Shown in pieces: positions 1 to 6,298 of a stretch of DNA of 17,097 bases (within the stretch, counting starts at the first letter, position 1; each line of letters opens with the position of its first letter). Both the position numbers and the translations under genes were made by a program. The notes beneath the pieces are model-generated. The model made no database searches. It worked only from the letters and a program-made list of their open reading frames with translations, and had not been told where the DNA came from. This DNA is from a virus. Location: UHGV virus genome UHGV-1592266; one strand, 5' to 3'.

Positions 1-723
1 ATCGTCAGTAACTGCCCACCATTTGTTTCTCGACCAATCGTAATACCCTTCGAAGGTATCGCACTCAGTCCAGCCGTAAGACTTACCCCAACACCAAACA
101 TACTGTTTATCGTTCGGCATTCGCTCACTACAGCTTATCCAACCATCCGGAGTTACCGGATAGTTGCCACCCTGAACAGTAGGCATATCCGGACCTTTGC
201 GAATCGCCCTGGCAAGATCGATTTGGTCGTCGTACAACCAGTCACCTGTTTGCGGATTATTTGCTTCTGCCAATTGTGCAGCCCACTCCAGGCCGTCTTT
301 GTGTCCTTGCAGATAGTCCAGCGGTAACTCATCACTATTACTTACAGGTTCGGCCTGAAGCATGGCGGCGCGATAGGCGGTCCAGCCGACAGCTTTTCCG
401 TGTTCAAACGCGCTGTCAAAGTCATCATCAATTTCCATCGCAGCGGGCACAGATACCGGCGCTGGCGGGGCGGTGTAGAGCGGCATTACCTCAATATTGA
501 AGATATCCCCCTCGCTTGGACACGCCTCTGCGCTACCGTAAACCCAAGGGTGAACGACTCCGTTACGCTTGTTGATTAATCTGTGCGCCCACGCCACAGG
601 CTCCGCTTCGAGCGATGCCAGCGCGATACGCGCCAGCGCCGAAGCCTCACCGCATTGAACGTGGTCAGTTTCGATAATTTGCTGTAACTGCTCTTTGGTG
701 AATTCTCTGGTAATAGTGCTCAT
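1..723 (-). CDS. Phage protein, 3' end truncated by window edge; C-terminal region resembles DUF551-type prophage proteins
   Basis: Minus-strand ATG at 723..721 opens a frame (MSTITREFTKEQLQQIIETDH...WISCSERMPNDKQYVWCWGK...) that runs past position 1 with no stop. The Trp/Cys-rich C-terminal segment resembles DUF551 from memory. Same strand as the pL operon. Confidence 0.5.
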   Translation of the reverse strand, partial: MSTITREFTKEQLQQIIETDHVQCGEASALARIALASLEAEPVAWAHRLINKRNGVVHPWVYGSAEACPSEGDIFNIEVMPLYTAPPAPVSVPAAMEIDDDFDSAFEHGKAVGWTAYRAAMLQAEPVSNSDELPLDYLQGHKDGLEWAAQLAEANNPQTGDWLYDDQIDLARAIRKGPDMPTVQGGNYPVTPDGWISCSERMPNDKQYVWCWGKSYGWTECDTFEGYYDWSRNKWWAVTDD

Positions 724-733
724 AGGTTAGTCC

Positions 734-910
734 TCAGTATCCAGAGTACGCGCGGAGTGATGCTATTCTCGCGGTGATATCATTGATGATTTCCTCCACT
801 ACCTCTGCGTGCTCATGTTCATCACGCAAGACATCAAGGGCGCTGTCTATTTCACGGAGCATATCCTGCTGCCATTCAATATCTTCTGATTCCGGGATTT
901 CGTATTTCAT
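734..910 (-). CDS. Small acidic hypothetical protein (58 aa)
   Basis: ATG at 910 is preceded by GGGGAG. The frame (MKYEIPESEDIEWQQDMLREIDSALDVLRDEHEHAEVVEEIINDITARIASLRAYSGY) is tightly packed between neighbouring genes. Below the ORF-track size cutoff. Confidence 0.4.
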   Translation of the reverse strand: MKYEIPESEDIEWQQDMLREIDSALDVLRDEHEHAEVVEEIINDITARIASLRAYSGY

Positions 911-1257: not shown

Positions 1258-1526
1258 TGGGCGGTTCCTTCGTAACCGATGGCTTCTGCAATTTCAGCAA
1301 GTGTCTCTGCACTTTCACCCACTGGCTCATTCATCCAGTCGAAGGAAACAAGCTTACCGCCTTCGATAACGCCGATGTTGAAATCATCACTACCTTGTGT
1401 TTTCAGACCATGCTTGATTGCCTTATCGCGCTTATCGAAGTCAACGCCGTCTGTCGTGTATTCAACTCCATGGCCTTTCTCGTTGCACCACCAGTACTGC
1501 TGAATAACGATGTATGATTTGCTCAT
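1254..1526 (-). CDS. Hypothetical phage protein (90 aa)
   Basis: Complete ORF whose start overlaps the upstream stop (ATGA) in the leftward operon. No family recognised. Confidence 0.45.
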   Translation of the reverse strand: MSKSYIVIQQYWWCNEKGHGVEYTTDGVDFDKRDKAIKHGLKTQGSDDFNIGVIEGGKLVSFDWMNEPVGESAETLAEIAEAIGYEGTAQ

Positions 1527-3659: not shown

Positions 3660-4043
3660 TTAGAAGGGAATTGAATCGTCGTATTCAGGATGATTTTGAT
3701 GATTGCTACTTTGCTGCTGTTGGCTGTTTCCTGAGGTTGCAAATCCAATCTTTGCATTCAGTAATTCAAGAGTGATTGATTGACCATTTTGCCCCTGATA
3801 AACATCAACCCTGATGTTTTCTCCGGTAATTTCCACAATGCCACCTTCAACAAGAACACTACGGTAGTAATCCGCTTGCGCTCCCGGCTTGGCAAATACA
3901 ACGGCGCTGTAGTTTGTCCATTCTTTCTTTTTTGTCTGGCGATCGTAATACTGAACGCCAGCACGGATGTTGAATCCGATATTTTCCCCGGCCTGAAACT
4001 CTCTTGCGGGCTTGTTTAGTCTTACAGTAATCGAATGTGCCAT
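3660..4043 (-). CDS. Phage single-strand DNA-binding-like protein with acidic SSB-type C-terminal tail
   Basis: Start placed at MAHSITVRLNKPAREFQ... The C-terminus ...PEYDDSIPF resembles the SSB-Ct DDDIPF tail, preceded by a Gln/Ser-rich linker. Start ATG overlaps the erf stop (TAATG). Confidence 0.55.
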   Translation of the reverse strand: MAHSITVRLNKPAREFQAGENIGFNIRAGVQYYDRQTKKKEWTNYSAVVFAKPGAQADYYRSVLVEGGIVEITGENIRVDVYQGQNGQSITLELLNAKIGFATSGNSQQQQSSNHQNHPEYDDSIPF

Positions 4044-4648
4044 TAAGCAGCCGCTCCTTCTAATTCGTCTCGTCTGATGTTGTAAACGTCCTGCGCTTTG
4101 TGCTGCTCCGGTGTTCCTTCGAGCATCTTCCACGCTTTGGCGAACGCCTGTTTAAGCTCTTCCACGGTGTTTTTCTGCATTGCTGCGTCAGTGAATGCTT
4201 TTAGAACCTGTTCAGGTGTAGGTGATGGTTTTGATTGCTTTGCTACTGCGTTCTGCTGATGTTTATGCTCGTCTGTATCTGCATCTTTCGCATCATCAAT
4301 GCCGAACAAACCATTGAGGCAATACTTGCGTGCATAAGAGCTTGTAGCTCCCGTAACTTGTGCAGAATCCATCCCTTTCTTGCTTTCTTCCTCTCGTGCA
4401 AGAGCGGTTGCCGTATGACTGTTTTCGCCATCGGTAATAGTTGCCGTGGCTTTCACGTAATACCGATCACCAATCAACACAACTTCATCGCTGATTGATA
4501 AAAACAGGCCATTCAGTAACGGCTTAACGCCTTCAAGAATGTCTTCGCAGCTTCTGTATTTATATTTTCCGAATGAGTTGTACTGATTCTTTGGCGCGTT
4601 CAGATTCTCCTGAATAGCTGCCAGTCTTGCGTAAAATTCTTTGCTCAT
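4043..4648 (-). CDS. erf: Erf-family single-strand annealing recombinase (P22 Erf-like)
   Basis: MSKEFYARLAAIQENLNAPKNQYNSFGKYKYRSCEDILEGVKPLL...GATSSYARKYCLNGLFGIDDAKDAD matches recalled P22 Erf closely. The ORF-track start at 4678 is a TTG; the ATG at 4648 corresponds to the Erf N-terminus. Confidence 0.85.
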   Translation of the reverse strand: MSKEFYARLAAIQENLNAPKNQYNSFGKYKYRSCEDILEGVKPLLNGLFLSISDEVVLIGDRYYVKATATITDGENSHTATALAREEESKKGMDSAQVTGATSSYARKYCLNGLFGIDDAKDADTDEHKHQQNAVAKQSKPSPTPEQVLKAFTDAAMQKNTVEELKQAFAKAWKMLEGTPEQHKAQDVYNIRRDELEGAAA

Positions 4649-4658
4649 ATGATTGTTC

Positions 4659-4829
4659 TCAGAATGGACATTCCCCAAGGAAATAACGCTGATTTAATAC
4701 TTCGACTCGGGACAAATTAAGGCATACCCGCATTCCTTCGCGGTCGCCATTATGGCGATACCAGAGAGCTTTCTGCGTGTACATGCGTCTCTGTAACTTG
4801 CTCTCCTTCACTGTGGTTGCAAGTGACAT
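4659..4829 (-). CDS. Small protein immediately upstream of erf (Arf-like position, 56 aa)
   Basis: ATG at 4829 is preceded by a strong SD (GAAGGAGAT). Frame MSLATTVKESKLQRRMYTQKALWYRHNGDREGMRVCLNLSRVEVLNQRYFLGECPF ends 11 nt before the erf start. Confidence 0.4.
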   Translation of the reverse strand: MSLATTVKESKLQRRMYTQKALWYRHNGDREGMRVCLNLSRVEVLNQRYFLGECPF

Positions 4830-4908
4830 GAATATCTCCTTCGTTACCGATTAATTCTTTCATCTGACGAATGAATTCTTCGTCTGACCAGTTATCTGTA
4901 AAACTCAT
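4750..4908 (-). CDS. Small acidic hypothetical protein (52 aa)
   Basis: ATG overlaps the Kil-like stop (ATGA). Frame MSFTDNWSDEEFIRQMKELIGNEGDIHVTC... Its 3' part overlaps the next ORF in another frame, so one of the two may not be a real gene. Confidence 0.3.
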   Translation of the reverse strand: MSFTDNWSDEEFIRQMKELIGNEGDIHVTCNHSEGEQVTETHVHAESSLVSP

Positions 4909-5057
4909 TTCCTGCGATACCACGGAAGGTTGATAGCTGATTTCATCGCTTTATTTGCTTCAAGCCACATTTTTGAATCACCAATAAATCTGGCTATTAC
5001 TGCTTTGTTCTGTGCAGCACGAAGCATCTGGTGATTGATGGCTATTTCATTGCGCAT
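4905..5057 (-). CDS. kil: Kil-like host-killing / FtsZ-inhibitor peptide (50 aa)
   Basis: Lies immediately downstream of cIII, overlapping it as kil does in lambda. The motif KAVIARFIGDSKMWLEA resembles my recollection of lambda Kil (..IATFIGDEKMF..). Identification is from memory only. Confidence 0.4.
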   Translation of the reverse strand: MRNEIAINHQMLRAAQNKAVIARFIGDSKMWLEANKAMKSAINLPWYRRK

Positions 5058-5197: not shown

Positions 5198-6166
5198 TTA
5201 GTAGGTTATTTTTGTTGCGAATACTTCGCCTTTTACGATGGCTGTTATGATATTTTTAGCAACATCTTCTGATGCACCAACCTTGATAAGGTCAGCAAGT
5301 ATTTTGTTATTTACTTCTTTCCGGTGAGCTTTATCCTTTGCTCTACGCTCTTCTTCGTCCTTGATTCTTTTTTCTTCTGCTATTCTGGCTTGCTCTTTTG
5401 CTTCAGCCTCGCGCCGGATTCGTTCAGCCTCCTCCTGTGCTTTTCGGCGTTCTGCTTCAATTGCCGCCTGCTTTTCTCTTTCAGCTCGTTCTGCTGCCTC
5501 TTTTGCTTCGCGCTGTGCTCGTTGCTCGGCTTCAATGCGTTCACGCTCTGCACGTTCCGCTGCGGCCTTAGCTTCTGCTTCTCGCCTTGCTGCTGCTTCA
5601 ATTTCGGCTTTTGCCTTTGCTTCGGCTTCTGCTCTGGCTTTCTCTTCAGCTTCTCTTTTTAAGCGTTCTTCATGCTCTCGCTTTTCCTGCTCCGCTTTGA
5701 GTCTTGCCTCTTCTCTTTGGCGGTCAAATTCGCGATCCATCAAAATAGCTATTTCATGGTCAGACTCAATTTGCTTTGCGAGAGCTTCAGCTGCTGCCTT
5801 AGCTTCTTCTTCGGCTTTAATCCGCGCCTGTTCTTCCTCATAATCAGTAAGAGGCTGGCGCGCCTTGGCTTTCAGCTCATCAAGGCGATCACGCACTGTC
5901 TTGCGGTTGGCATCAATTAGCTTTGGAATTTCCTTCAGTTCAGCAACAAGGTCTTTGCCAAGACCATCGAGATATGTTTTCGTCTGCGCAACTTTATACG
6001 CCAGAGAAGCGATCTCCTTTCTGCCCTTTGCCGTTGTGATATCAGGCACAAAGGACATAACTTCACGTTCAACCTTTTGAAGGATTTCTTCAATCTGGTC
6101 GGCAGACTGAAATACAGTCATTGCATTTGCTTTTTCAATAACAACTAAATCTGTTACTTCACTCAT
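5198..6166 (-). CDS. Coiled-coil phage protein with a long Ala/Glu/Arg/Lys-rich central region (322 aa)
   Basis: Start placed at MSEVTDLVVIEK..., preceded by GGAGG. The central ~150 aa are low-complexity (AEAKAKAEIEAAARREAEAKAAAERAERERIEAEQRAQREAKE). Family not recognised with confidence. Confidence 0.6.
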   Translation of the reverse strand: MSEVTDLVVIEKANAMTVFQSADQIEEILQKVEREVMSFVPDITTAKGRKEIASLAYKVAQTKTYLDGLGKDLVAELKEIPKLIDANRKTVRDRLDELKAKARQPLTDYEEEQARIKAEEEAKAAAEALAKQIESDHEIAILMDREFDRQREEARLKAEQEKREHEERLKREAEEKARAEAEAKAKAEIEAAARREAEAKAAAERAERERIEAEQRAQREAKEAAERAEREKQAAIEAERRKAQEEAERIRREAEAKEQARIAEEKRIKDEEERRAKDKAHRKEVNNKILADLIKVGASEDVAKNIITAIVKGEVFATKITY

Positions 6167-6178
6167 ATATCCTCCGTC

Positions 6179-6207
6179 AAAAAAATTGCCCTCACACTGG
6201 AGGGCAA
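6179..6207 (-). terminator. Intrinsic terminator on the minus strand, directly upstream of the coiled-coil gene RBS
   Basis: Read on the minus strand: TTGCCCTC-CAGTGT-GAGGGCAA hairpin followed by TTTTTTT. Confidence 0.6.
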
Positions 6208-6298
6208 AGAAGATTTCCAATAATCAGAACAAGTCGGCTCCTGTTTAGTTACGAGCGACATTGCTCACATAGCAGACTCGCAAATCTGCTATAGGTGC

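Follow-up and report, generated by a model that had tools for sequence, protein, structure and literature searches.

The window analysed here is the whole stretch of 17,097 nucleotides of the viral genome UHGV-1592266, and the region of interest comprises a group of small genes that are all read from its minus strand (Table 1). The genes cIII and kil belong to the early left operon, and the former overlaps the start of the latter. They are followed by two small open reading frames, designated ORF A and ORF B, and then by erf, whose ATG lies 10 nt beyond the stop codon of ORF B and whose product has the N-terminus MSKEFYARLA, which matches that of P22 Erf. Upstream of cIII, another minus-strand ORF of up to 340 aa is located at positions 5198-6220, with a repetitive centre extremely rich in E, A, K and R (EAKAAAEALAKQ, REAEAKAAAERAERERIEAEQRAQREAKEAAERAEREKQ).

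A first-pass annotation of this DNA had described two small ORFs between kil and erf that overlap by about 80 nt in different frames, the 52-aa ORF being coupled to the Kil-like stop and the 56-aa ORF being preceded by a strong Shine–Dalgarno (SD) sequence. This anatomy is confirmed at all three points. The overlap is exactly 80 nt long, the stop codon TGA of kil (4907-4905) and the ATG of ORF A share the tetranucleotide ATGA (4905-4908), and the SD sequence GAAGGAG is separated from the ATG of ORF B by 6 nt. The GAAGGAG motif is also present in two diverged lineages (L088 and L090). ORF B starts 79 nt downstream of the start of ORF A and, thus, lies in its +1 frame. In the mechanical list of open reading frames, ORF A is given 57 aa from a GTG at 4923; the ATG at 4908 is used here, as in the homologues. 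The C-terminal peptide of ORF A is ELIGNEGDIHVTCNHSEGEQVTETHVHAESSLVSP.

Table 1. Features at the kil–erf interval and at the comparable overlap in two other phages; positions are those of the window unless another record is named.
Feature	Position	Strand	Remarks
cIII, 43 aa	5042..5173	minus	Pfam Lambda_CIII PF02061, E 4e-15
kil, 50 aa	4905..5057	minus	Pfam Lambda_Kil PF06301, E 1.7e-20
ORF A, 52 aa, phrog_2123	4750..4908	minus	ATG 4908-4906, stop TAA 4752-4750
Unshared part of ORF A, codons 1-26	4830..4908	minus	Carries the conserved module MSFTDNWSDEEFIRQMKELI
80-nt overlap	4750..4829	minus	A codons 27-52 and stop; B codons 1-27
SD sequence of ORF B, GAAGGAG	4836..4842	minus	Inside A codons 22-24 (N-E-G)
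ORF B, 56 aa, phrog_1723	4659..4829	minus	ATG 4829-4827, stop TGA 4661-4659
erf, 201 aa from ATG 4648	4043..4648	minus	Pfam ERF PF04404, E 5.6e-44
Second overlap, SPN9CC (L093)	1201-1383 and 1289-1477		
Second overlap, 29485 (L112)	701-883		

Distribution and mosaicism of the A+B pair

Existing annotations already include the A+B pair, which is nothing unusual in a compact lambdoid early operon. A 501-nt stretch that contains both ORFs finds matches in 94 phage records, while the 250-nt A+B unit is present in 1,113 of 5,426 complete E. coli genomes (about 20%). The two ORFs are found again, 98-99% identical in DNA, as gp42.1/gp42 of HK97, gene 30/29 of Sf6 and ECRS218_0052/_0053 of CUS-3, and in these phages the pair likewise sits between kil and an Erf-type gene, although the downstream gene of Sf6 is a Rad52-type 'Erf' whereas the window carries a P22-type Erf. 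The records of Sf6 and CUS-3 list A as well as B, with an identical 80-nt overlap in the +1 frame. In the HK97 record, two extra bases generate a single ORF of 83 aa (gp42.1), gp42 being an in-frame internal start.

In total, 85 full-length copies of the pair were collected, representing 57 haplotypes. An ORF A of 52 aa occurs together with an ORF B of 56 aa in 82 of these copies. One copy (L103, HK022 type) has an ORF A of 56 aa and an intact B, and in another (L028, the IMG/VR UViG 2657244986_000007) a nonsense change turns A codon 8 from TCA into TAA while B is again intact, so that this copy may represent either a natural knock-out of A or a prophage in decay. A and B are fused in HK97 only.

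Similarity to other phages ends exactly at the start of A (4908) and just past the stop of B (4658). Across lineages, four or five different genes are joined at the upstream junction, including those encoding Kil, KilR and a 56-aa protein that begins MQQFAIAG, and different strand-annealing genes are joined at the downstream one. These breaks in similarity indicate that the A+B pair moves as a mosaic unit and, judging from the second junction, strand-annealing genes appear to be exchanged right after B.

The way in which the pair has been annotated varies widely. On RefSeq E. coli chromosomes (L113 and L114), PGAP reports A alone (WP_000010966.1) or neither ORF, and phage records are inconsistent, listing one ORF, both, or a fusion. 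Moreover, PHROG-derived annotation calls both ORFs 'recombinase', with no visible basis. Concerning the sampling of sequences for the comparisons below, the best 80 IMG/VR loci are all at least 97% identical and, therefore, of no use for deep frame tests; divergent lineages were taken from contigs encoding protein-search matches and from GTDB genomes.

Families of the two ORFs and independence of ORF B

ORF B can be assigned to the HkaM family (phrog_1723), which it matches along residues 1-56 (E 4.5e-35), as do HkaM of phage HK620 (NP_112046; E 3.6e-33) and a 62-aa ORF of phage SPN9CC (E 1.4e-31). HK620 HkaM has 62 aa and shares 34-38% identity with B in a collinear alignment, where the C-terminal pattern E..N.R.FL....PF is common to both, and the family alignment contains 12 invariant columns, among them E43, N46, F50, L51, P55 and F56. 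HK620 HkaM is coupled directly to kil, with no A-type ORF over it, and precedes sak4 (Sak4, RecA-like core), whereas B of the window precedes Erf; both are, thus, located directly upstream of a strand-annealing gene. HkaM has been called arf by position only, without homology to P22 Arf (PMC5928155). In a search of the literature on HkaM, gp42 or the A/B overlap, only that paper, where HkaM is an orphan, and PMC12315714, which deals with Arf, were relevant.

Protein searches retrieved 56-aa homologues of B down to 63-71% identity, and in species-representative genomes B is found at 73% identity in Pseudocitrobacter, 64% in Kluyvera and 54% in Yersinia. The family is narrow, with 21 representatives in 1.84 billion proteins, and this exhaustive profile search gave no lead to function. 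Neither A nor B is covered by a family in NCBIfam or Pfam, and HkaM likewise lacks one in NCBIfam. The AF2 model of B is a two-helix hairpin (helices 7-27 and 30-51, pLDDT 91), a shape too generic for the fold searches in PDB and BFVD, which returned nothing below E 0.2.

Several lineages possess B without the A module, namely the Salmonella-type loci L084-87 and L091/92 and those of Kluyvera and Yersinia (L105 and L106 among the loci). In them, B is preceded by an intergenic spacer or by an unrelated gene, and in two of the four lineages without A the A frame shuts 4 codons past the ATG of B. In the first-pass annotation, related phages that keep only one of the two frames open were regarded as evidence against a true overlap. 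B-alone lineages do exist, but the whole A gene is absent from them rather than closed by stop codons, and such evidence is, thus, obtained in a trivial manner only. The next gene follows B after 2-13 nt and belongs to the ERF, Rad52_Rad22 (Sf6 type) or AAA_24 (Sak4) families. In a Salmonella prophage (L087), a gene for an HNH endonuclease (PF13392, 1679-2149) is located between the B homologue and erf, an arrangement resembling the insertion of a homing endonuclease between the two genes.

ORF A matches phrog_2123 (HK97 gp42.1/Sf6 gp30 type) along residues 1-52 (E 6.6e-42), and diverged lineages that carry both A and B are L088/89, L090 and L104. The start of A overlaps the stop of the upstream gene in five of five lineages, as ATGA, GTGA or TAGTG. 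The N-terminal consensus is (M/V)S(F/I)(T/A)D(N/T)W(S/T)D(E/D)(E/A)FIR(Q/L)MK(E/D)LI. Nei–Gojobori counts along residues 2-20, in an alignment anchored on the Trp codon, yield pS 0.69 and pN 0.28 among the five lineages, pS 0.91 and pN 0.07 between L088 and L104, and pS 0.97 and pN 0.18 between the window and L104. From these counts, a module formed by the first ~20-26 aa, with the motif WSDEEFIR, is under purifying selection. Within the close population, the N-terminus of A is constrained only moderately, the unshared part of the ORF containing 6 synonymous, 16 nonsynonymous and 1 nonsense variants in 55 haplotypes. The AF2 model of A consists of a single helix (residues 9-20) followed by a low-confidence coil (residues 21-52), and the tail, with pLDDT 46-60, is predicted to be disordered.

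The N-terminus of A, in the form MSFTDNWSDE(E/T)FIR(Q/L)M, is shared by ORFs of other recombination modules. In phages HK140, Louie, EC.P3 and mEpX1, which have RecT-type modules, the first 20 residues of A head a 35-aa ORF with a short acidic tail, followed by a 103-aa gene and RecT. In the P22-like phages SPN9CC and 29485, the latter a Salmonella phage, an A-type N-terminus heads a 60-aa ORF (phrog_17766). The A-like ORFs of both groups start, as A does, in overlap with the stop codon of the upstream gene. Moreover, the 60-aa ORF of SPN9CC and 29485 overlaps an HkaM-like 62-aa ORF by 95 nt in the +1 frame, ahead of Erf, an arrangement that constitutes a second, independent case of the same kind. 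One of the two records annotates the first ORF only and the other the second ORF only.

The relationship of the pair to P22 Arf deserves separate consideration. Arf aids Erf-dependent recombination, according to Poteete et al. 1991 as cited in PMC12315714. Like A, P22 Arf (47 aa) is encoded by a small acidic ORF after kil, with a start that overlaps the kil stop, and residues 5-11 of Arf have only (W/F)SDEEFI in common with the N-terminus of A. In P22, arf runs into erf, its stop overlapping the start of the latter, whereas A terminates within B and does not abut erf, and P22 has no B. The Arf family PF17585, carried by 42 of 42 Arf homologues, is not matched by the A family even at E up to 10. 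A matches phrog_2445 (Arf) along residues 5-26 with E 0.037, and hhalign of the A family against the Arf family gives a probability of 8% (P 0.004, 18 columns). Since PF17585 is not matched and the other scores are weak, A is not a demonstrated member of Arf, and it can be described only as faintly Arf-like in position and motif. B, in turn, shows no Pfam or PHROG match to Arf.

Selection within the shared segment and competing explanations

In classical phage overlapping pairs, such as lambda Rz/Rz1, both products are functional and both frames are constrained. The A/B pair resembles Rz/Rz1 in being an ORF read in another frame of its neighbour within a compact phage operon but, unlike in Rz/Rz1, the shared segment shows constraint in one frame only. 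In a deep comparison that comprises four or five lineages, short segments and saturated synonymous sites, the overlap read in the B frame has pS 0.73 and pN 0.18 (pN/pS 0.24) among the five A+B lineages, and the unshared part of B has pS 0.66 and pN 0.19 (pN/pS 0.29). Read in the A frame, the same overlap has pS 0.19 and pN 0.32, hence a pN/pS of 1.7, within a range of 1.3-1.7. A reduction of synonymous variation, which the first-pass annotation had proposed to look for in each frame, is not found for B: its synonymous sites are as diverged in the overlap (pS 0.73-0.85) as outside it (0.63-0.66) or in lineages without A (0.70, range 0.65-0.75), and synonymous divergence is not lowered in either half of the overlap. 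At the protein level, 6 of the 26 residues in the N-terminus of B are different between the window and L088, against 12 of 26 in the tail of A, while the comparison with L090 yields 5 and 14 of 26, respectively.

The close population points in the same direction. The overlap contains eight polymorphisms in 55 haplotypes, seven of which are synonymous in B and nonsynonymous in A, all at the third position of B codons; the eighth changes the amino acid in either frame, and A-synonymous variants are absent. The unshared part of B contains 13 synonymous and 5 nonsynonymous variants in the same haplotypes. Altogether, the shared 80 nt evolve under the B frame only, and dual constraint is not supported.

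Some observations could nonetheless hint at selection on the tail of A, or on the initiation region of B. Firstly, in each of the four independent A+B lineages the A frame runs on without a stop as far as B codon 26-30. Given the B protein, and with simulated synonymous codons, the probability of an A frame open by chance is 0.25-0.63 per lineage (0.17-0.73 when lineages without A are included), and the joint chance for the four lineages is about 0.03-0.08. It is mainly the K/E/Q/R-rich sequence of B that keeps the A frame open, and this openness constitutes weak evidence for A; the reality of both ORFs rests on conservation and not on openness. Secondly, nucleotides 1-41 of the overlap (4790-4829, B codons 1-13) are free of polymorphism in the 55 haplotypes, where 4-5 B-synonymous variants would be expected (P about 0.01), and variants occur in the flanks at 0.2-0.3 per nt. 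This invariance may be due to chance, to a constraint on the initiation region of B, or to one acting on A residues 27-40 over the short term; in the deep lineages, this segment is saturated. Neither the joint openness nor the invariant 41 nt holds at deeper divergence.

Against this background, true overprinting, with both frames of the 80 nt selected and a functional 26-aa tail of A, is considered unlikely. The two hints just described, together with the independent 95-nt overlap of an A-like with an HkaM-like ORF in SPN9CC and 29485, are the points in its favour, but they are opposed by the undiminished divergence of B-synonymous sites, by an A-frame pN/pS above 1, by polymorphisms that alter A and not B, and by a tail that differs between lineages at more residues than B does. 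In addition, this tail is predicted to be disordered, and the A module works with wholly different tails elsewhere.

It is somewhat less probable still that B is the only gene of the two and that the frame of A is open from the kil stop on into B merely by accident. Such an explanation would fit the fact that PGAP often annotates neither ORF and that many phage records list one hypothetical protein, as well as the nonsense codon of L028 in front of an intact B, the occurrence of B without A, and the many nonsynonymous singletons in the N-terminus of A within the population. However, the first 20 codons of A are under clear purifying selection between diverged lineages, as in L088 and L104, its start/stop overlap is retained behind different upstream genes, and the 20-residue module heads ORFs in both RecT-type and P22-like modules. 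The related proposal of the first-pass annotation, namely that only the SD-bearing 56-aa ORF is real and occupies the position of P22 arf, is not supported, since B belongs to the HkaM family with no match to Arf, while the faintly Arf-like SDEEFI residues are found in A. Translation of both ORFs, the other possibility raised there, is better supported. It finds support in conservation, of the N-terminus of A on the one hand and of B down to 54% identity on the other, but the true overprinting with which it had been equated does not, since the shared 80 nt are under the B frame only.

A further explanation, which we hold to be improbable, is that A and B constitute a two-part accessory unit of the phage recombination module whose overlap is itself functional. 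Ribosomes that translate A across the SD sequence and the ATG of B would set the A:B ratio or delay B, or a low-level +1 shift would make a fusion comparable to the 83-aa ORF of HK97. If this were true, it would account for the maintenance of an open A frame.

Fused forms of the pair have to be considered in this context. Compared with the other copies, HK97 has one extra base at each of two sites 7 nt apart (CATGTcACACGCgAGAAAG; AF069529.1 = L001, 1560-1811; window 4775-4785). As this is the sole fused copy of 85, the insertions may stem from an error in the sequence deposited in 2000 or be a variant private to HK97. The protein collection also contains A–B fusions of 81-82 aa, whose break points differ and which are mostly singletons, as expected if they derive from sporadic 1-nt deletions or errors at varied points of the overlap in E. 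coli assemblies. One of them (P0022) occurs on 36 contigs, so that in at least one case a fused variant is maintained within a lineage. The fused form of HK97 was rejected as the ancestral state. Programmed +1 frameshifting was discarded as well, with no conserved slippery motif and with variable codons at the A stop (CCA TAA; AGG TGA; GGG TGA; TCG TGA). RNA folding of the region 4640-4925 is no better than that of shuffled sequences (z -0.97), Rfam gives no match for it, and a scan for promoters and terminators finds no sites above chance, results that together argue against a non-coding element there. The idea that A and B are halves of one gene, broken by a frameshift mutation or joined by programmed +1 frameshifting, is very improbable: the single 83-aa ORF of HK97, the 81-82-aa fusions and the +1 position of B are compatible with it, but B starts from an SD sequence and an ATG of its own and in several lineages occurs by itself, the fusions are sporadic and break at different positions, the A-stop codons vary between lineages without a slippery motif, and the RNA structure is not unusual.

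Proposed expression of the pair and biological meaning

The explanation that we favour, and judge to be likely, is that a lambdoid prophage carries A and B as two distinct small genes of its early-left (PL) recombination module, arranged in an asymmetric overlap. Both ORFs are probably translated, since signals for translation are present in each case, start-stop coupling for A and an SD sequence for B. As suggested by the conserved start-stop overlap, ribosomes that end kil would reinitiate at the overlapping ATG of A. Translated by this termination–reinitiation, A would have its functional part in the first 20-26 residues, which would form one amphipathic helix. Because the SD sequence and the ATG of B lie inside A codons 22-28, ribosomes translating A would cross them and continue in the -1 frame of B to the TAA at 4750. 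This read-through would extend 80 nt into B and add a hydrophilic tail of 26 aa that is dictated by B and is itself unselected. In turn, B would be initiated separately from its own strong SD sequence, as the constrained partner of the two.

Regarding the function of B, its constant position directly upstream of a strand-annealing gene, whatever the family of the latter, suggests an accessory role in the recombination module. The fact that three unrelated SSAP folds are found behind B argues against a specific physical partnership and, hence, the description 'accessory to SSAP' amounts to guilt by position. Instead of one particular SSAP fold, the target of B may be a common one, either of the host or in DNA.

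The importance of these findings is modest. The overlap illustrates in textbook fashion how a frame can be open and probably translated and yet not selected. Moreover, a clearer annotation of the locus is gained, with B recognized as a member of the HkaM family that is often missed by PGAP; B, the ORF most often omitted from annotation, is the better-supported gene of the two by comparative evidence. Accompanying three unrelated strand-annealing families, B/HkaM is a reasonable candidate for an accessory factor of phage recombination modules, a role that could also matter for recombineering.
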